Assembly: GCA_964016885.1 (NCBI GenBank)
Contig: OZ024743.1
Location: 201,934,001 to 201,998,000 of the forward strand
Direction: 5' to 3'
Length of the DNA: 64,000 bases
From: Eledone cirrhosa
Taxonomy: Eukaryota
Shown here: piece by piece, positions 3,180 through 54,894 of the stretch
Position numbering within the stretch: the first letter of the stretch is position 1
How the letters are laid out: each line of letters begins with the position of its first letter
Position numbers and translations under genes: made by a program
Notes under the pieces: generated by a model
What the model was told of the DNA's origin: nothing
The model's database searches: none
The model's input: the letters and a program-made list of their open reading frames with translations, nothing else

Positions 3180-3222
3180 GTCACTGAAGAGGTTACAGAA
3201 TGTGTGACGAAAGAACTTTGAC
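3180..3222 (+). ncRNA. Minimal type I hammerhead ribozyme, family F2
   Basis: GTCA-CTGAAGA-G GTTACA GAATG TGTGAC-GAAA GAAC TT-TGAC. Confidence 0.8.
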
Positions 3223-15364: not shown

Positions 15365-16199
15365 AATTCCATATATGGTCAAAGTGATTGTCACATGGAT
15401 TGGTCAAAAGTTTGTAGTTGAGACATAATAATTCTATGATGGCAATTAGTGGAGGGAAGGGGTAGCTAAACCTGCCACTAGGAGAAAGAGGGAGAGAGGG
15501 TGGAGGAGACCCATTCATGCGTTGATAGTGCCGGCTACAGTTGGGCGTGAGGTCAAAGAAGATACTAGGGAGGGGGAGGGAGAGGAAGTCGAACCAGTAA
15601 GTAGAACAATGAGGGGTAAATATATAGAAAAATACTGAGAGTGTTAAAAAGCAATTAAATGTAAAAAAAAAAAACAATTTCTGGTTACTACGACCTAAGT
15701 CTCTCACTATTGCTAGGCTAAAGAAATATACTAGGTGGGACGGAATTAAAATGAGAACCTTTTAAGAGGTATAAGTAAATATCCGAGTATATCTTACGGT
15801 GACGGGTCAACAAGTGAGGGGCCAAAATACTAAAGAGACTACCACGAAATAATAAAAGTTTCTACCCCAGGCACAAGGTCAGCAACCACCCAGTGCAAAA
15901 AAGTAAATTAATACGAAATAATAATTCAGAGACCCGAAAAAGAATACTAATACTATCTCTAAGGGTGCCGCCCACCTAGGGTGCGGCCCACCTAGTATAT
16001 TTCTTTACCCTAGCAATAGTGAGAGACTTAGGTCGTAGTAACCAGAAATTGTTTATTTTCTTTTACATTTAATTGCTTTTTAACACTCTCAGTATTTTTC
16101 TATATATTTACCCCTCATTGTTCTCCTTACTGTTTCGACTTCCTCCCCCTCCGGGTCCGTAAATAATTAATCAGCTTCTTCCGCGACTGGGGATTTAAA

Positions 16200-17210
16200 A
16201 TAACACTACAAACGTCCCTGACCCGAGTAAACTTCCTGGACGTTACCCTCGACCTCGATAATGACCTGTACTACCCATACAGGAAACCTAACGACAACCT
16301 GCACTACATCCACCGCCGATCAAACCATCCTAGGAACATCACCAATAACCTGGTTAAAAACATCTCCCTCCGCATATCCCGTTTGTCAGCTAATGAGCAG
16401 ATATTCGATGAACATGCGCCTTATTACAATCAGGCCCTCAAGCGGAGTGGTTTCCGGGAGGAAATATCCTACTGTCCAGCTCCCATTAGCGGAACCAGCA
16501 GGCGACACCGCTGCTCACGCAATGTAACATGGTTCAATCCTCCCCACAACGTCGAGGTGACAACTCCTATCGGGAAAATATTCTTTAGCCTTATTGTAAA
16601 ACAATTCCCACTACAACACTGCTACCACAAAATAATTAACAAAAATACCATCAAACTCTCTTACAGTACTACACCAAACTTTGCACAAAACATCGTCTCC
16701 TCCAACAACAAAAAACTCAACCCCGATAGAAGAAATAACCTAAATAGCAGTGGAGAGACGACCAGGAGGTGCAACTGTCCTGATGGATCCATTTTCCCCC
16801 TCGACAACAGATGCAGAGATCTTAATGTGATCTACCAGTGCAACGTGAGGACGGACACCTCCAACAAAGCTTATATAGGATTAACCGCATGTGACTTCAA
16901 GACCCGGCTATACCAACACAGACATACCTTCCGAAACCCGGCCCGGCGTCACGCCACTACACTTTCGGGCCGCATATGGGACCTCAAGGATAACAACATT
17001 ACCTATGATCTCACTTGGAGATTACTGTCCAGAGCCAACTCTTACACGGGAGGACGCCCTCCGTGCAATTTATGCTCGGAGGAGACTTTACAAATGCTGT
17101 TTTCGACGGACCAACTCCTAAACAAGAAAGATGAACGGGTTACTGCATGTAAACACTGATTGCATAGGACTTACCTCGCCGTCAAACCCCATAATGACGC
17201 GGGAGTGTAG
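16200..17210 (+). pseudogene. PLE RT thumb and GIY-YIG endonuclease fragment
   Basis: VNFLDVTLDL..PYRKPND..SNHP..WFNPP..NTIKLSYS..CNCP..VIYQCNV..AYIGLT..FKTRLYQH..TTLSGRIWDLK..CNLCSEE..CKH. Confidence 0.9.
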
Positions 17211-18459: not shown

Positions 18460-19371
18460 CTTTTTTTTGGGTTGTAACTTCTCTGTTTTCTAGCTTAGGA
18501 AAATATTTATATATATGCCTACGTATATAATTACGGGCATATATGTATTTATTTTCTTTTATTAATTAAGTTCTTTACACGAGGGATTAATATTGGTTTA
18601 GAAATAACTAATTAACCCGCGTATGTTTTATATTTTACTCTTAATAATTCGGCCGGAGAATTATATTCCCATTTGCCCTTTATAGCATAACTTTCTGCAT
18701 TTACTGCGGTTATGAGAAGCGGTTCTTATTCGGGTACAACTTCTGATTTAGCCTAAGAAAATATCTATATGTGTGTGTAATTTATACAAGCATATATTTA
18801 TTTTTTTATTTTCAATTGAGTTCTTAAACATGTTGGATTGATAATCTTTTCAAAAAAACTAATTAACCCGCGTGTATATTATTTTTTTTCCTCATTTCGT
18901 GGGTTGTCTCCCCTTCCCGCTTCGTGTCGCTATGATACTTCCTCAGTCAAAAACTGCTGGAATTTCAAATTTGGCGGTCATTCGAGGTGAGAGAGAGTAA
19001 CTTTACGGACATTATTTTTGACAGCGGTAAGAAATTGTTTTCTTATAGCAATGTTTAAAGGGCTTCCACTGATGATTTATAAGTGCCCACCTAAATATAT
19101 TCTCACATGAATATATATTAGGCTTCTACATAAACTGGAAACATTCTCCCAAACTTGTAGAAAACTTATAATGAAACAATTGTTTGGAAAGAGAGATATA
19201 CTTTAACTTTAATTATATCTCATAAAATAATACAACTGCTTTTTCCACATTATACATATTGTTAGCACCCCAAACACTTAAATTGGGTTTATAGTTTAAT
19301 ATAACCTAATGTTTGTTGAGTGAGATGGTTACCAGTCAGAGTTTAGCTTTAAACTATCTCTGTTATTGTAT

Positions 19372-20420: not shown

Positions 20421-21941
20421 TATTAAAATAACAGATTAAAGTTTAAGCAAAGAATCGCTGCTTTCACCCTTAACGGGATCTTCTGAAACTAACAAAGTCA
20501 ATCTGTAAACGCAGAACAGGATATTTCAAAAAACGTTGCAACCGGAGGAAGACAGGAAGACGATACTTTGGTTTGTGGAAACGTTCGCTGGCAAAGAACG
20601 GGAAAAACGAATAATACGTCATTAATAGGAGCGGTGAAAAGCAATTACGCGCAAAGACAGAACCGCGTTTATGGTATAAAAGAGGTCGTAGACTAATGTT
20701 CTCTTAGGTGGTGCATAGAGACATTCTCTGGCAATGAACGAAAACACGAAGATAATACGTCATATGTGGAGCGTGGAGAACAATAGCACGCAAAGACAAA
20801 ACCACGTAAATGGTATAGCAGAAGTCGTAGACTAAAATCCTAACTAGGAAACCAAATGAATCTCCACTACAGAGTTAAGAACAAAGTAAATAAATACAAT
20901 ACAGAAGTAATAGAAATAAATAAATACATACATGCAAACGAATACGTACATACACAAGCATACGCAAAACCTTACCATAGGTATACAGAACCACGCACAT
21001 ATAAATATGTGTGTGTGTGTATGCGTGTATACAAATAAATAAATAATTATATAAACGTATATAAATAAATAAACACGTATATAACAAGCGCACATACATA
21101 CCTACATATAAATACACGAATGTTCGGAGACGTAAGTCAACTAAAACAAGAAGTACACATATACACGCACCCACCATACGTACGAACCTGCATACTCACA
21201 CAGACGCGAAACTCCCGTATACACATAGCCAAACCCTATGTACCAGGATATATAAAATTATACGCCATAACAATCAAATATAGGTGCGAGAAGTTATACG
21301 TACCTTCACAAAACATACGGGTAATATATACCTACCTATGCAAATAAGTAAAGGAATAAATAAAACATATAGTTAGCTCCCACATCAAGACGTGAAATAT
21401 CCACGTATAGATCGTACTATCCGTTAGGGTATAACGTGCGGCTGTAATACAGGAAAGTTTTGTGCAATTTATGTTTACAAGCCGAAATTGCCTCAGATTT
21501 TTTGTTTAAGATGTGGTCTGTGGCGTAGAGTATTTCCAGGGCCTCAGCGGCGCAGAGGTCACATAGTCTTTTATTTCCGTTATACGATCTAGCCCTAGCT
21601 AGGATCTCCCAGTGTAACTTATATTGGGTGTGGTTGTCTTTTAGACTCCAGATATAACCTGAAAGTGACGTCATATTCCTTCTTAGAGGGTAACGAAAAG
21701 AATGGGTATGCATGTAAAGACGCTGCTTGAAACTATTGGCGGTTAACCCTATGTAGGCCCTACGGGACGTGGGTGTTACAACCTTACATTTGTAGACAAT
21801 GTTACTAGAGAGGCATTTCCCGGATAGGGGCAATCAGCCCGATTCCTACAATTACAGTTAGTACTAACTACAGGGTTGCACGTGTTCCTACGGCTAGGTA
21901 GTTTAGCTAAATTTGAAGCTATGATGTTATGTGCAAGGTTA
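20421..21941 (-). mobile_element. 5'-truncated Naiad-type PLE, family F5 (GIY-YIG 21417-21941, 3' UTR/pLTR)
   Basis: CNC..CPLSGKCLSSNIVYKCKV..AYIGLTANSFKQRLYMH..CDLCAAE..CKH; homologous to 54000-54890 and 56346-56925. Confidence 0.9.
20431..20506 (-). ncRNA. Hammerhead-like motif, family F5, U4A core (CAGAAGA)
   Basis: ACAGATTGA..AGTTT-CAGAAGA-TCCC GTTAA GGGT-GAAA GCAG CGATTCT TTGC TT-AAACT.TTAATCTGT. Confidence 0.7.
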
Positions 21942-23637
21942 TCGTAATTGTAATTGCCCTATTAAAACTAAATGTCCTCTCAATAACCATTCTCTTGATA
22001 CAAACTTAGTCTATAAATGTAAGGTTATAACTGATACCAATTCCTTTACCTATTTCAGTTCCACTTCCACTTCCTTCAAAGCCAGATTTTCTAATCACAA
22101 TTCGTCTTTTAAATACCAACTTAAAAGAACTAACACGGCACTCTCGGAACTCATATGGTCCTTGAAAGACAAACATATTAACTATAACATCTCTTGGAGG
22201 AAGGTTTGTTCTGCCTTTCCTTACCTGAATTCTTCCCTATCCAGAACATTTAATCTCTGCCTAGCCGAGAAATTTACCATTATATCTAATTTCAATTCTA
22301 TAATAAATAGACGCACGAATTTATTTTCTCTCTGCTTGCATAAATTCCATAGAACATTCCATAAATTATACAGCTAATATCTCAATACCTTACTAGTTTA
22401 AAATCCTTTTTCTCAAAGGCTTATATATCTTTTACAAATATACCCATCTTTCTACCTTATTTCAATATTATATATTATATAATACAATTCACCCATTCTA
22501 TATCATTCCTCTTTATCATTTTCCTTTCTTCCTTTTTTCTTTTCTTTTTAATTTCTAACCTCTAATCTGTACTTTTTCTTCCCAACTACTTCTCAATTCT
22601 TATTATTACTCACCACAACATTATCCATTCTTCCATCTTTCCTTATATCATTGGCCATAAAAATTATTTTTTTAATACATTATAATATTACCATTAGAAG
22701 TCCTTCGTAAACATTTATTTTTTGACGTTAGATTTTTTTTCTTCCTTAAATTTTGTATATCTCTTCCATCCTTTCATGCTCATTTTAAACTACTACTTAA
22801 TTTGACTTTTACATATTACAATACATAGAAACAAACTTAAACCCTAACTAATTTCTTTTAATATATTATATTATTACCATTAGAAAATATTTCGTAAACA
22901 TATACTTTTTGATGTTAGATATTTTCTTCCTTAAACATTCTTTTCTTCTTTCTTTCCGCGCTCATTTTAAACAAACTATTTACGTACACATATTACATTA
23001 CATAAAAACAAACTTAAACCCTAACTAATTCCTCTAAATTCATAACTCATTCATTCTTCTCCTACTTTTCACATTATATCCCTAATATCATTAATATTTT
23101 TATTTTAATAATACATATTAATACATTCTTTTCCTCGCACATATTATTAAACACTTCAATATACAAACCTTAATTTAATACTATTCTTAATCCCTTTTTC
23201 TTCATGCATAAATCTCATTAACTTTTAATTTCAAAATCTTTAAAATTATCTATTATCTTCCAACAGCTTATTAATTTCTCTCTGTGAGACAATATATATT
23301 TTTTTCTCAGTTGTAAAGGCTATCTCTCTCTCTATCACCCATCTCTCCTCCTCTCTCATCCGTCCTTCTTATACACCTCCCCGCCATCCTTTACTCTCAT
23401 TTCTTCCTCTTCCTTACCTTTTTCAACGCCCCACTCACTTTTTCCCAATCTCATACATCAATCTTAATTTATTTTTCATATGTTGATTGAAAACTTGACT
23501 ATTGACAAGTGTTTTTTAAGCTTCATATAATGTCTCCCTATTTTATCTGATGAGAACGCAGATATCATCCCATGATGATACTTGTTTTTGAAATGCGCAT
23601 AATAAAATAGTGGGAACACTTTTAACCACCTTTTGAT

Positions 23638-38744: not shown

Positions 38745-41420
<2,676 letters not shown>

Positions 41421-44659: not shown

Positions 44660-44717
<58 letters not shown>

Positions 44718-44936
44718 GGGGTAACAAATAATAGTTAAATGCAGTCCACTTAGGTATAGTCCAGTTATGGTATTCCAGGTAGTGGATGATATTAACGCTT
44801 GGCTTGGTTTGACTCAACAAGGCGTTTTCATACTGATGCTGCGGGTATGCTGTAATTCCTATGTTGTAAACACTTGGAGTAATAATAAATCAGGAAAGAA
44901 GGTTGACATGGTTTGCTATACAAAAAAGGTTTTTAA

Positions 44937-45057
44937 TCTCATAGCTGACAATTGTTTCTCTGAACTGGTAGGTCTAGAGATCGCTATTCGCTTATTTTCA
45001 CGTTACTCGATCGCCAATACAAAATTATAACCAGTCAGATCTTCGGAGCATGCGAGA
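44937..45057 (-). ncRNA. Hammerhead-like motif, family F9, U4C core (CCGAAGA), extended stem II
   Basis: TCTCGCATGCT-CCGAAGA-TCTGACTGGT [~60 nt] ACCAGTTCAGA-GAAAC AATT GTC-AGCTATGAGA. Confidence 0.72.
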
Positions 45058-45430
45058 ATGAAGAGAATACACAGGCAAGAAAAGAATATAGAGGCTACTA
45101 TATGAAGTAGTAATGGCATTCAGTTAGAACAATAACAACAATTACAACAATGCTATTAATAAATTATTTGAGGAGACCCTGACATTACTTAGGTGGGGGG
45201 TATAGTGTATCTAAGATTACGGCGTGTAAAACTAGCTGTCATGAGGCAAAAGTAAGAGTTTGGCATGTACAGAGTATCGAAGTGTGTATCAATTTTAAAT
45301 TATAAAGATAAGCCAGTGTTTACAGTCTTTCTTTTCATCTTCAATAACATACATGAGTAGGACAACACTGTCAAAGCTAAATAGTTGTTGAGTTAATACA
45401 GAGGTTAACGAGGTGATATACGCATATATT

Positions 45431-45506
<76 letters not shown>

Positions 45507-45824
45507 CACATGCATGTGTACATAGACACATACATACACATCAATATACACTCGTACAAAAATATACATACATGCAAAGAGATAAGCGTGCTAATTGTAA
45601 TTATGGCAAAAGGAAGGTAAAGTTACATTGTAGTAGTGATTTGAGAAAAACTAGGATTTAGGATCAAATGATGGCAGCAGCTGAGAAGGAATAAGTTTGT
45701 GGGTTGATGAGATACTTACAGACATTTGTGTGGTATAGACTTGTGAAGGATATAGTATACTTAATGAATATATTTCTGTGGGTAGTAGGTATCCTAATTT
45801 AAAGCTATGTTGTGTTGGTTCGAT

Positions 45825-47840
45825 TCACGGAGGTTTGAATCTTATGAATTTAGTGGCAATTCTATGTCTGCAGAAGATAGATCTTTCTAACTTATTAAGT
45901 AGCCTTTTTACATTTTTGAGGATATACAACAGCTCAAGATCACATAGCCCGCAGTGGGACATCCCTGTACTATAGGTTTTAGCAGCCGACAACTTCGACC
46001 AGTTGATACTGTAGTTAGTGCTGCTGTCCTTCAGTTCCCATATTTTTTTGGCGAGGGTTGTGGAACCCATAAGTGCACGGTTTTTCATTGAGTGCCTGTG
46101 CACATACCATCTTATTTTAAAAGAACCCGCGGTAGATCCTATGTAATTCCAGGTGGAGTTACCCAAGATGACCGTGCACATGTACACTAGGCTCGAATCG
46201 AGACATCTGTTCGCCAATGGGCACCTATCTGGTAGGTGACAGTTACAGTTTGAGGCGCTATTTTGTGCAGCTTTTACATTCCTGTTTAGTACTCTGTTAT
46301 AAGTGGGTTGTGATATATGCCCAATGGGGTTTTCCTGCTGCGCGTTTGTATGCGCTTGTGGTTGTGATGTTTTGATGTGTTTGTGCTTATAATTTGGTGC
46401 TACGTTATGTATAGGTGCAGTTGATTCACTAGAGATATTTCTGTGGTTGATCTTGCGTATGTGTGATTCTATGTTTGCTGCTGTTGAGTATGAGAGTTTT
46501 ATAGTAGATCTATTGAGTATTTTGTGATATCTATGCGAGATAGGGAAGTGTTTATCTATTAGTTTAAAGAATGTAGAGGGCAGTCTAGTTTTTATAGAGG
46601 AGTTGAATATTGGGTTGAACCATAGGTATTTCCTTTGTCTGTTTCTTCTATTGTTTCTTGGGTTTACGTTATTAGTGTTTTGGCCGTTTACTCCAGGTGT
46701 TACGTGTCTAACCCTATGTCTAGTCAAGTTATTTCTATTATTATGTGAGCGGTTGGAGTAGTAATTACTAGGATTGTTTACGTTGTCTTTATTCACTATA
46801 TACTGCAGTTTATCTTTATGACCGGCCCTACGTAATGCTGCATTATAATAGTCAGCATGCTCGTTAAAGATTTCTAGGTTTGAGGATAAGCGGAATATTC
46901 GGAGGGATATACTACGTGCTATGGATTTAATTATGGATTTGGGGTGATTTGAGTTGTAACTAATGTAGGCAAGATTTTCATTATTTTTGTGGAAAGGTTC
47001 TATTAATCCAGTATTTAGATTTAGAGTCACATCTAGAAAATTTACCTTCTTATGGTTCAGTTCGTAGGTAATACTTAGGCCTAGTTTTTTGAAGAATATT
47101 CTAATATTTTTTCTTAGTCTTTCCATGCTCTGGTTGTTTAGGTTCCTAGCTATAAGTAACGTGTCGTCCCTATAAATTCCTCCTTGGAGATTACTGAATT
47201 CCTTATGTAGGTTGTGTGCTATGAATAGCCCCACGATATCTGTGATTTGCGCAGAATCATTTGATCCCATTGTTATATCGAAGCTATTTATTCTATCCTT
47301 TCTTACCCAGTAGCTATTTTCAAATTTTATGATAGTCCTTCTAGCCGCTATTATTATTTCAATTTCATCATGGGTAAGATCAGAGTTATTTTGGGCAAAT
47401 ATAAGCGCCTTATCTAGGGTAGCTGGGGATATGGATGCATAGTAGTCGTCTATATCAAATTGTATGAAGTTACACGTCTCCCTATTTTGTATTTTATTGA
47501 ACCATTTAATTGCCTCGTTAGTGTTGCCCCATAAACTGATTTCTAGTTTACCCTTTATTTGTGTGATTACCCTATCTAGAATGTTCTTGCTAATTTTACC
47601 TATGTCTGACTTGGATGGGCATATTAATCTAATGGTGGGATTAGTTTCAAAGTTATTTTTGTGATCCTTCAGGTTAAATGTTGGGTTGCACGGAGTTAGC
47701 GGTTCGGTCCTATCTGGAATTCCGAGTTTATTAACTATCTTGAGGCCCTCCACTTTAATGCTGGTGAGTGTAGATTCATTTGTTTTTTTATATTTTTTAT
47801 GTAGTTCACGCTGGATAAAGCTATTGTATGCGTTAATGTG
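45825..47840 (-). CDS. PLE reverse transcriptase and GIY-YIG endonuclease (stop-free, N-terminally truncated at the inversion junction)
   Basis: LKDHKNNF..RLICPSKSDIG, FIQFDIDDYYASI, FDITMGSND, GIYRDD, NFLDVTLNL, SNHP, WFNP, CNC..CPL..LVYMC..YIGST..CGLCDLE..CRH; frame stays open upstream of 47753 to ~47840. Confidence 0.93.
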   Translation of the reverse strand, partial: HINAYNSFIQRELHKKYKKTNESTLTSIKVEGLKIVNKLGIPDRTEPLTPCNPTFNLKDHKNNFETNPTIRLICPSKSDIGKISKNILDRVITQIKGKLEISLWGNTNEAIKWFNKIQNRETCNFIQFDIDDYYASISPATLDKALIFAQNNSDLTHDEIEIIIAARRTIIKFENSYWVRKDRINSFDITMGSNDSAQITDIVGLFIAHNLHKEFSNLQGGIYRDDTLLIARNLNNQSMERLRKNIRIFFKKLGLSITYELNHKKVNFLDVTLNLNTGLIEPFHKNNENLAYISYNSNHPKSIIKSIARSISLRIFRLSSNLEIFNEHADYYNAALRRAGHKDKLQYIVNKDNVNNPSNYYSNRSHNNRNNLTRHRVRHVTPGVNGQNTNNVNPRNNRRNRQRKYLWFNPIFNSSIKTRLPSTFFKLIDKHFPISHRYHKILNRSTIKLSYSTAANIESHIRKINHRNISSESTAPIHNVAPNYKHKHIKTSQPQAHTNAQQENPIGHISQPTYNRVLNRNVKAAQNSASNCNCHLPDRCPLANRCLDSSLVYMCTVILGNSTWNYIGSTAGSFKIRWYVHRHSMKNRALMGSTTLAKKIWELKDSSTNYSINWSKLSAAKTYSTGMSHCGLCDLELLYILKNVKRLLNKLERSIFCRHRIATKFIRFKPP

Positions 47841-47912
<72 letters not shown>

Positions 47913-48293
47913 AATATATGCGTATATTACCTCGTTAACCTCTGTATTAACTCAACAACTATTTAGCTTTGACAGTGTTGTCCTACTCATGTATGTTATT
48001 GAAGATGAAAAGAAAGACTGTAAACACTGGCTTATCTTTATAATTTAAAATTGATACACACTTCGATACTCTGTACATGCCAAACTCTTACTTTTGCCTC
48101 ATGACAGCTAGTTTTACACGCCGTAATCATAGATACACTATACCCCCCCCCCCCCCACATAAGTAATGTCAGGGTCTCCTCAAATAATTTATTAATAGCA
48201 TTGTTGTAATTGTTGTTATTGTTCTAACTGAATGCCATTACTACTTCATATAGTAGCCTGTATATTCTTTTCTTGCCTGTGTATTCTCTTCAT

Positions 48294-48414
48294 TCTCGCA
48301 TGCTCCGAAGATCTGACTGGTTATAATTTTGTATTGGCCATCGAGTAACGTGAAAATAAGCGAATAGCGATCTCTAGACCTACCAGTTCAGAGAAACAAT
48401 TGTCAACTATGAGA
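48294..48414 (+). ncRNA. Hammerhead-like motif, family F9, inverted-arm copy
   Basis: Same fold as 44937-45057 with one stem I mismatch (AAC for AGC). Confidence 0.65.
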
Positions 48415-48569
48415 TTAAAAACTTTTTTGTATAGCAAACCATGTCAACCTTCTTTCCTGATATATATATATATATATATCCATATATATATATATATATA
48501 TATCCATATATATATATATATACATACACACATATATATATATATACATACACACATATATATATATAT

Positions 48570-48926
48570 TTGTGTATAGTGGTAGCTATGGTGCTTCCGT
48601 AGGCGGTATGCCAAAATTAGCACTCGATATTCATCAGAGTAGAGTGTACGAATTATAAAAAAAAAACGAAAAATCCGTGATGCATCTGGACTTAGTTTAT
48701 TTCGTGTTACAAATGTTTCGCGGCCATGTAGCTCGAGTCATGGTCCTTGTATGGATCTGGCTGATTCTACTTCTGCGGGTTCTTTCAGACACGTCTGTTA
48801 TGTCCGGAGCAAATTTTATCATATAAAATTTGCTCCGGACATAACAAACGTGTCTGAAAGAACCCGCAGAAGTAGAATCAGCCAGATCCATACAAGGACC
48901 ATGACTCGAGCTACATGCCGGCGAAA
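48570..48926. mobile_element. Near-perfect 211 bp palindrome (48716-48926) plus ~145 bp one-sided tail, family F10
   Basis: Arms of ~104 bp around a 3 nt loop at 48820-48822; (TA)n flanks. Confidence 0.9.
48703..48793 (-). ncRNA. Hammerhead-like motif, family F10, core CTGAAAGA, extended stem II
   Basis: CGTGT-CTGAAAGA-ACCCGCAGAAGTAG...CTACATGGCCGC-GAAAC ATTT GTA-ACACG; base of stem II is imperfect. Confidence 0.5.
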
Positions 48927-48933
48927 TATATAT

Positions 48934-49011
<78 letters not shown>

Positions 49012-51373: not shown

Positions 51374-52155
<782 letters not shown>

Positions 52156-52478: not shown

Positions 52479-54894
52479 CTTCTATCGAATTTACGAACTA
52501 TTAAATCAGTTTAAGCACACATCATATTACGTGTTGGCTCACTATAAACCACCTTAGTACGCATGAATCGATTTGCTTTGATTAGATACGGCTTTTTAAT
52601 AAAATCATTGCAGCAATTTCTGTGAGGTTTCCTAAACTCTTTTGAAGATTTCTTATCACTTCCGGCTTCTTCTCTTATTCACAAAAAATAATGGCTTCTT
52701 GCTTCGGATCCTGGTTTTGTAGAGAATTTTGCCCGAACATGATTCTTTAAATTATAATTTTCCTTTTAACTTAATTCAACTCATTAAAACAGTGTTGTTA
52801 AAGTGTTTGTATAAAATGGCTTAGTATTAACTCCGGCTCTCTGCGTTCCGAGTTCAAATCACGCGGAGATCAACTTTACCTTTCATCTTTTCATGGACGA
52901 TAAATAAATTACTACTTCAGAAGTGGTTGCGAAATTGTTAAAATGCGGATAGAATGCCGGATTATGTCATTAGTTGCGACATACAGATACCATCCACAAT
53001 GGAAAGACCAATAAAAACTTAGTTTCCATGGTCCCATCTAACGATTGACTGATTCACTATTTTTCAGAAAAAAAATCATTTTATATACTCTTTCAATGCT
53101 TGTATCATTAATTCACATTTGAACGGGTCTCTGTAAGAATAAACAGAACTTTTGTGCACATACACGCTTGCAAGTATTGAAAAAGAATATATATATATAT
53201 ATATAGTAATAATAATCAATTTGAAGACTAAAAGCCAAAGAGAGCTCTATAAGGATAAATATATATCAAATATATAAGAACCCTAGAGCAAATATTTATT
53301 AAAATGACAGAATAAAGTTTAAGCAAAGAATCGCTGCTTTCACCTTTAACGGGATATTCTGAACCTAAAAAAATCAATCTGTGAACGCAGAAGTAAATAT
53401 TTCGAAAAACGTTGCAACCGAAGGAAAACAGGAAGACAGTACTTTGGTTTGTAAAGACGTTCCCTGGCAATGAACGGAAAAAAGCGAAGATAATACGTCA
53501 TTATGTGTATCGTTAAGAACAATTACACACAAAGACAAAACCACGTTTATGGTATAAATGAAGTCGTAAACTAATATTCTATTAAGGAAACCGAGTGATT
53601 CTCTGGCTTCAGAGTTAAGAATAATGTAAATAAATTAGTAGAACTAAAGTGACAGAGGTTGTTGAAATCAACAGCATAACCAAGAACCTGGTACGAAACG
53701 TTTCCTTGAGGCTCTCCAGTCTATCTACAAACGAGCATATTTTCACCGACCATTCCACATACTACAATGAAACTCTTGCTCGGAGTGGATTTGTCGATAA
53801 GGTAGCGTATACTAACGTTGAGCATAGACCTAGGAAAAATAGATCCCGACGCATTATATGGTATAACCCACCATATAATATGGAGGTGGCCACAGCATTA
53901 GCTCAGATATTCTCTCCCTTATTAAGAAGCATTTCCATTCAGCACATACATATAATAACATTTTAAATAGAAATACCATTAAAATATCTCACTCCATGAC
54001 TCCTAACCTTGCACATAACATCACTGCTTCAAATTTATCTAAATTAGCTAGCCGTAGGAACACATGCAGCCCGGTAGCTAGTACTAACTGTAATTGTAGA
54101 ATCGAATTGACTGCCCTCTATCCGAAAAATGCATCTCCAGTAACATTGTCTACAAATGTAAGGCCGAAACACCCACGTCCCGTAGTGCCTACATAGGGTT
54201 AACCGCCAATAGATTCAAGCAGCGTCTTTACATGCACACCCATTCTTTTCTTGACCCTTTAAGAAGGAATATGACGTCACTTTCAGCTTATATCTGGAGT
54301 CTAAAAGACAACCATACACAATATACACTGGGAGATCCTAGCTAAAGCTAGATCGTATAACGGAAATAATAGACCATGAGATCTTTGCGCTGCTGAAGAT
54401 CTGGAAATACTCTACGCCAATGACCACATCTTGAACAAAACATCGGAGGCAATTTCGCCTTGTAAACATAAATTGCATACAACTTTCCTGTATTACAACC
54501 CCACGTTATACGCTAACGGATAGTACGAACAATACCGGATAATTTACGTCTTGATGTGGTAACTAGTATATTTTATGTTTATACCATTACTTATTTATAT
54601 AGGTGAGTATACCTTACCCGTATCTTTTGTGAAGATACGTATACTTTCTCGTACGTATATTTGCTTGTATTTGTTATAGGTGTATATATCATACTATAAA
54701 TACTGGTACATGTGTATATGGTTATGTGTATATGCGTTGTTTTTGTGTTTGGTATGTGTATATGAGTACTTTGTATTTTAGTTGACGGACGTTTAGTGAA
54801 CATATGTGTATTACTTGTAGCTGTGTGTGTGTGTGTTTGTGGGTGCCTTATATGCGTATTTATGTGTGTATATTTATCTACGTTTATATAATTA

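Follow-up and report, generated by a model that had tools for sequence, protein, structure and literature searches.

A hammerhead motif with cytosine at core position 4 as a family state of a Hydra-clade Penelope-like element in Eledone cirrhosa

In a 64,000-nt stretch of the Eledone cirrhosa genome (GenBank assembly GCA_964016885.1, contig OZ024743.1, positions 201,934,001 to 201,998,000 of the forward strand; hereafter the window), a Penelope-like element (PLE), here termed F9, carries in each of its two inverted arms a type I hammerhead motif with C instead of U at position 4 of the core (U4C). The locus raises the question of whether this substitution is the accident of one insertion or a state of the whole family and, in the latter case, what such a motif would still do as a self-cutting RNA.

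As the original prediction had it, both arms read GCT-CCGAAGA-TCTGACTGGT...ACCAGTTCAGA-GAAACAATTGTC, with 81 nt lying between A9 and G12 (both exclusive; stem II had been put at about 80 nt). C3 and C4 are found at 48305 and 48306 on the forward strand, and at 45046 and 45045 on the reverse strand. The core letters C3, G5, A6, G8, A9, G12, A13, A14, the A15.1-U16.1 pair and H17 are all present in the window motif. U4, which belongs to the type I definition, is not, and C4 is found in 1048 of the 1069 pattern matches in the genome. The arms, correctly described as nearly identical (533 identities and 6 mismatches over 539 aligned bases, indels besides), form an inverted repeat in which the left arm alone is in sense to the open reading frame (ORF), with its motif 781 nt beyond the ORF end. 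Since both stem from one insertion, they are not independent evidence. The left arm folds with stems I and II, its folding energy being ordinary with respect to shuffled sequences (z -0.24) and no support by itself; the right arm, with private changes at 48339 (G>C) and 48406 (G>A), both in helices, does not fold as a hammerhead. No hammerhead appeared among the 150 of 154 Rfam matches listed for the window, the canonical short ones being missed as well.

To place the window copy among its relatives, exact 22-nt patterns were counted in the 3.0-Gb genome, each arm of an insertion being counted, and gave 1048 matches with C4, 8 with T4 and 13 for a G5A control. As the T4 copies are no commoner than the control, they look like post-insertion mutations. 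Likewise, the 30 best loci contain 38 motifs, every one of them with C4 (some motifs being repeated and some loci overlapping). A second C4 subfamily, about 93% identical to F9 in protein sequence, has U.U at 10.1/11.1 and a GUA site. Of 664 codons compared between the two subfamilies, 50 differ synonymously and 37 non-synonymously, and therefore both come from lineages under purifying selection. Scored genome-wide, CTGAAGA is not the family state and CCGAAGA is: C4 is fixed in the F9 family, which is young, and the earlier caution that both arms might have inherited one private mutation does not hold, the other copies having C as well. The idea that C4 kept against CpG decay reflects positive selection was rejected, because C4>T (0.7%) and G5>A (1.2%) are no commoner than the approximately 1% difference between arms.

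By its predicted structure, the motif is a member of a large set of hammerheads with a covarying stem II of 70-100 nt. A pattern combining a stem II of 68-98 nt with GAAACAATTGTH was found 5948 times with U4 (control 5) and 4692 times with a non-U (control 16). Among the latter, 90 of 100 matches listed are CC, and the 8 fetched of the remaining 10 are all off-register. Given these excesses, and a descriptor scan of 890 kb of the genome that returned 244 matches against 3 on the reversed sequence, the motif is not a product of chance. Long-stem G5A control matches number 276 against 5948 for U4, and therefore most of the U4 matches represent true U4 families. That the U4 families are decayed C4 ones was rejected on the same comparison, and on ten basal U4 copies that retain 2-6 other CpGs each. 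In the window, a U4 hammerhead at 19069 (forward strand), with a 97-nt stem II and the shared GAAACAATTGT strand, is a member of the large U4 long-stem family.

In an alignment of 41 hand-picked motifs, 91.9% of the cells assigned to pairs were paired, 10 of 17 pairs had changes on both sides, and the covariation score was 0.380 versus 0.231, a value that no shuffle out of 500 attained, with slid controls not exceeding 0.113; the structure was drawn from the same sequences and their relatedness inflates the test. Stems I and II covary, the stem III pairs are invariant, and RNAalifold independently recovers only the two inner helices. Across the group C3, G5, A6, G8, A9, GAAAC, G16.2 and U16.1 are fixed, and position 4 alternates between U and C; these core letters are invariant in the 41 motifs, but the motifs were selected by those same letters. 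Core-blind BLAST searches with stem II interiors, over loci mostly chosen by core patterns, returned no other core change common to a long-stem subfamily. In a U4 subfamily basal to F9 (L289, L290, L364 and L377), A9 is followed by an extra A and stem II begins with three unpaired positions, which again points to loose constraint beside the core.

How often position 4 has changed was read from a tree built on stem II and the tail, with the 5' core excluded, of 133 motifs out of 202 extracted, with near-identical groups capped at five members and two mis-assigned loci removed. On this tree, where the midpoint root sets the direction, the alignment is short and the sampling follows the C and T patterns and not genome frequencies, position 4 (U/C) changes 16 times and the free position 7 changes 18 times, against a mean of 43.7 for shuffled labels. 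Read by eye, 7 of the 16 changes split groups of at least two loci and the other 9 affect one row each. The F9 group sits inside a ladder of U4 copies with other CpGs retained, and C to U reversals occur under the midpoint root. Within the long-stem group each of the four bases occurs at position 7, but just U and C at position 4. The proposal of relaxed or altered constraint at U4 is thus borne out by the repeated switching among related families, with the qualification that the long-stem group is loosened to a pyrimidine only. None of 339 column traits switches along with position 4 over 11 independent pairs, a comparison of low power, in which the best trait changed on average in the same sense in 2.9 and in the opposite sense in 0.5 of the pairs.

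Position 4 also varies outside the long-stem group. The window does hold the second position 4 substitution that had been reported, CAGAAGA, in a family with A4 in 21,970 of 22,215 genome matches, a 3-bp stem II, 5-bp stems I and III and a CUU site, located about 955 nt 3' of another PLE ORF, the end of which has CxxC and CxH motifs as in F9. A mixed short-stem family has 36 C, 64 U and no purine at position 4 among 100 listed of 2824 matches. Another lineage, whose stem II measures about 62 nt, is represented by 20 loci picked from search listings; it retains the 3' strand GAAACAAUUGUA and stem I, and its cores are CUGAGGA, CUGACGA, CCGACGA, CCGAAGA and CCGUCGA (A6U; 5 motifs at 4 loci), some further ones having an extra base. 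In 400 kb sampled at round coordinates, regardless of content, the scan returned 34 CU, 4 UU, 7 CA and 2 CC cores, with 2 matches probably due to chance; non-U cores were 9 of the 47 plausible matches. At metagenome loci with related proteins, 50 distinct motifs were found in 46 of 77 loci (47 CU, one U3-A8, two C4; against 2 matches on the reversed sequence), placed 3' of the ORF in the same layout as in F9. The two C4 hammerheads, with a short stem II, lie in contigs L123 (position 1793, forward strand) and L146 (reverse strand, scan position 1985), and therefore U4C is not confined to the E. cirrhosa genome. Hammerheads with a U3-A8 swap were seen at L201:1620 (reverse), L032:383 (forward), L091:871 (reverse) and L137:2400 (forward), one of them with a 72-nt stem II.

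As for the element that carries the motif, full-length F9 relatives have an 808-codon frame with Met at codon 15 and a protein of 794 aa. The alignment of the window frame to this protein starts at residue 130, and its first Met corresponds to residue 191, past motif A of the reverse transcriptase (RT). The frame had been announced as about 670 stop-free codons of RT and GIY-YIG nuclease; 671 codons without a stop are indeed present, but the frame is 5'-truncated. By its frame, the window copy is non-autonomous: with the first 129 of 794 residues missing, it cannot mobilise itself. The element also exceeds the span first given for it (44937..48414), reaching from about 44717 to 48459.

The fold predicted for the F9 protein matches reverse transcriptases, telomerases ranking 2-4, and its C-terminus is assigned to a nuclease by motifs only (VY..YIG). 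A Pfam search with the protein gave no match at E<=1, and no relevant match came from sequence searches of Rfam, NCBIfam and PDB. The closest protein relatives share 38-47% identity, and viral contigs yielded no relatives. By its protein motifs F9 is a Hydra-clade PLE. The full-length copy L071 has RWK at 37 and DKT at 120, a region missing from the window copy, and lacks GxKF/Y; the CxCX5C linker, CxxC and CxH are present, CCHH is absent, and one Cys lies between VY and YIG. The same set (RWK, DKT, no GxKF/Y, CxCX5C, no CCHH, CxxC, CxH) is given for Hydra-clade PLEs by the accessible text of Craig et al. (2021, PMC8557442), together with a C-terminal GIY-YIG, (TA)n targets and an inverted 5' copy, of which F9 has the (TA)n target and an inverted, 5'-truncated copy. 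A Neptune or Nematis identity was ruled out, neither the CX2-5CxxC linker nor the CCHH motif being found. In Hydra-clade PLEs a type I hammerhead also lies 3' of the ORF, in many cases with U.U beside the core and GAAAC-N-GU-H (PMC8557442). However, all 26 Hydra rows in File S2 of that work have CUGA and a stem II of at most about 26 nt, against C4 and 81 nt in F9.

Hints on cutting were sought at the ends of F9 copies. With 3' ends taken as alignment ends, a few bases into (TA)n, 42 of 92 mapped ends lie between +61 and +65 and 46 between +232 and +237 relative to the predicted cut, none at the cut itself. F9 copies, ending about 60 or 235 nt past the predicted cut, would therefore have been copied from uncut RNA. 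The tail between the two 3' ends, about 175 nt, compares with 30-40 nt in Hydra-clade PLEs (PMC8557442). On the 5' side, F9 junctions fall exactly at the predicted cut in 19 raw cases versus 7, 1 and 10 at offsets -6, -12 and +5, and in 14 events once four pairs are merged and one duplication is dropped. In the A4 family 420 such junctions were counted versus 141 and 63 at nearby controls, and in the mixed family 25 versus 5 and 7, with 8 of the 25 resembling deletions between repeated letters. This excess, consistent over the three families, is a weak hint of cutting, and microhomology may explain much of it. In contigs of runs X1-X4 a few loose ends lay at the cut site, with no pile-up. No RNA run was among the holders listed, a negative that carries no information about expression. 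Also seen were small palindromic insertions in head-to-head arrangement, their centres coinciding exactly with the four bases past the predicted cut (L437/L438, L444/L445 and L446/L447, the last at about 1504); in each, one arm ends at +60 and the other runs on, to +235 in two of the three.

On balance we lean, not far from an even judgement, towards reading the F9 motif as a slowed, still constrained self-cutting RNA. The RT would start at two sites 3' of the motif and would have to pass through it; cut RNA would then be lost as a template, and a fast ribozyme would not be needed. A comparable arrangement is described in the accessible text on the Poseidon PAc hammerhead of Anolis (Frangieh et al. 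2024, PMC11167929), where two internal RT start sites set the extent of the tail, the template is mainly uncut RNA, cutting occurs only with protein, and the hammerhead is dispensable for insertion in vitro. Two start sites 3' of the hammerhead and an uncut template, both putative in F9, are common to the two, whereas PAc has a canonical core, belongs to another PLE clade and has demonstrated cleavage, against a predicted cut in F9. At the core, U4 contacts the A6-N7 phosphate, U.U is tolerated at 10.1/11.1, and U4C is reported to make a viroid hammerhead much slower in vitro while leaving it sufficient for infectivity (Perreault et al. 2011, PMC3088659). As a protonated C can stand in for U in a riboswitch U-turn (PMC4105743), C4 in that form may keep the uridine turn, which could be why only pyrimidines occur at position 4 in the long-stem group. 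Occasional cutting, probably as a dimer or helped by the element's protein, would be important enough for the catalytic G8 and G12 to be retained. For minimal PLE hammerheads, which resemble F9 in being type I, placed in the pseudo-long terminal repeat (pLTR) and provided with a short palindromic stem III, dimer action and low activity have been proposed (Cervera and de la Pena 2014, PMC4209133).

Several points weigh against this slowed-ribozyme reading. In a mutational scan of another hammerhead, mutants of the CUGA turn had low activity except for the C3-G8 swap (PMC9901934). A6U or an extra core base is common to several loci of a related lineage, and the A4 fixed in one family is not explicable by a protonated C. 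The structure behind the covariation test was drawn from the sequences tested, and core invariance is partly built in, as most loci were found via core-requiring patterns. Stem III is palindromic in F9, as had been claimed, but loop III is non-palindromic, ACAAATGT, in the sister C4 subfamily (L069-L076), and two-strand folding of the F9 motif did not return a hammerhead dimer. As for the junctions, the self-complementary AGCT yields 3 of the 14 F9 events, (TA)n microhomology accounts for many of those in the A4 family, and (TA)n is not handled equally by the control filters.

Some of these observations would fit a motif that does not cut, the three-way fold being kept to bind or position the element's protein near the RT starts and the core decaying stepwise from position 4. 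The A6U and extra-base cores occur where the 3' strand and stem I are retained, A4 is fixed over some 22,000 matches, full copies would all come from uncut RNA, and hammerhead mutants leave insertion in vitro unimpaired (PMC11167929); stem I, moreover, has just 3 bp at the junction, and the fold energy is ordinary. Against such a scaffold, diverged families retain G8, G12 and, at position 17, a base other than G (C, U or A), albeit letters for which the searches selected; in addition, C returns to U on the midpoint-rooted tree, and there is the slight junction excess at the cut site. We regard a non-cutting motif as an unlikely explanation, albeit one to be taken seriously.

Full compensation of C4, with a tertiary contact of the long stem II restoring a fast ribozyme, appears improbable. 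Its extra helices are conserved with compensatory changes, and peripheral contacts have been suggested to offset core variants (PMC3088659); yet the long stem II occurs with U4 and not just with non-U, C4 occurs with short stems too (in the mixed short-stem family, L123 and L146), and no column trait was seen to switch with position 4, at the low power mentioned. No tertiary loop contact between stems I and II was identified in the F9 motif. Finally, a private mutation of one insertion, which the common origin of the arms would allow, or an assembly error has practically no credit, being refuted by the genome matches and the 30 best loci. Contigs from three public runs have variants at positions 7 and 10.1, and the 40 variant rows listed out of 45 include no other letter at 45045.

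Table 1. Features of F9 and of the A4-core hammerheads in the window (+60 and +235 are counted from the predicted cut).
Feature	Position	Strand	Remarks
F9, 5'-truncated Hydra-clade PLE with inverted copy of its own 3' end	44717..48459	-	target (TA)n, on both sides
Open frame	45825..47840	-	671 codons, stop-free; no start codon, first 129 residues missing
RT motifs of the frame	47459, 47270, 47174, 47039	-	
CxCX5C linker	46247	-	CNCHLPDRC
GIY-YIG-type nuclease motif	46187	-	VY..YIG
CxxC	45953	-	CGLC
CxH	45872	-	CRH
Inverted arm	47847..48459	+	copy of the 3' untranslated region; joins the truncated ORF inside a (GT)n run; its end is the +60 site
Sense type I hammerhead motif	44944..45049	-	stem I GCU/AGC; core C3-C4-G5-A6-A7-G8-A9 at 45046-45040
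3' core strand GAAA	44958-44955	-	stem III A-C/G-U around AAUU
Predicted cut	between 44947 and 44946	-	GUC site
Position 4	45045	-	C (consensus U), family-wide
Stem II domain, 81 nt	44959..45039	-	basal helix, middle helix GAUCG/CGAUC, apical 3-bp helix; compensatory changes in each across families
Tail 3' of the predicted cut	44717..44946	-	family copies end at about +60 or +235 (putative RT start sites)
Second hammerhead copy	48302..48407	+	antisense to the ORF; C4 at 48306; helix-breaking private changes at 48339, 48406
A4-core hammerhead (CAGAAGA)	20485	-	
A4-core hammerhead (CAGAAGA)	~37689	+	
A4-core hammerhead (CAGAAGA)	~55100	-	
A4-core hammerhead (CAGAAGA)	~56862	+	

F9 is adjoined by the inverted 3' end of another PLE family (48708-48934), whose core has an extra base, CTGAAAGA, at 48854 on the forward and 48788 on the reverse strand; relatives of this element have U4, C4, A6U or other insertions, with the 3' strand intact. 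Other hammerhead motifs also lie close downstream of F9 copies at L069:5883 and L016:2323 (both on the reverse strand), an arrangement also met at many of the loci fetched; apparently these elements insert into one another's (TA)n flanks. Elsewhere in the window, canonical-core hammerhead motifs, none listed by Rfam, are found at 3184 and 13374 (forward) and at 51672 (reverse), and fragments of related PLE ORFs (25-40% identity) at 16152-17189, 21946-22311 and 53673-54502 on the forward strand and at 21444-21830 and 40485-41162 on the reverse strand.

Hydra elements, hammerheads in PLEs and the U4C substitution itself had all been described before. U4 is present in all 56 representatives of Fig. 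S3 of Cervera and de la Pena, which unlike F9 have a short stem II, and U3-A8 is the only core change that the accessible text reports for them (PMC4209133). The viroid substitution is the same as that of F9, but there it is a rare variant of a plant RNA replicon (PMC3088659), whereas here it is fixed in whole retrotransposon families and has been gained or lost several times. No report of U4C or U4A in PLE hammerheads, of PLE families fixed for C4 or A4, or of such a long stem II in these hammerheads was found in the literature, although subscription papers may cover these. Descriptor searches built on CUGANGA would miss the F9 family and, since non-U cores are common in this genome, consensus-based censuses undercount such ribozymes. 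The long covarying stem II represents a new peripheral domain. The sister subfamilies, both of which have spread with U4 or C4 in nearly the same context, are ready pairs for a comparison of rates and show which core letters evolution releases.

The finding bears on why PLEs carry hammerheads at all, as these are poor cutters and dispensable for insertion in vitro (PMC4209133, PMC11167929). Tentatively, and with a good deal more doubt than for a slowed F9 motif, position 4 might act as a tuning dial: because copying would be possible only from RNA with an uncut 3' hammerhead, lineages would repeatedly have fixed U4C, and once U4A, to throttle cutting, some of them reaching a non-cutting fold. 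If so, these families would form a graded natural series from a canonical ribozyme to a scaffold that binds protein and would include a new stem II domain of 80 nt, and the whole series would be invisible to CUGANGA-based searches.

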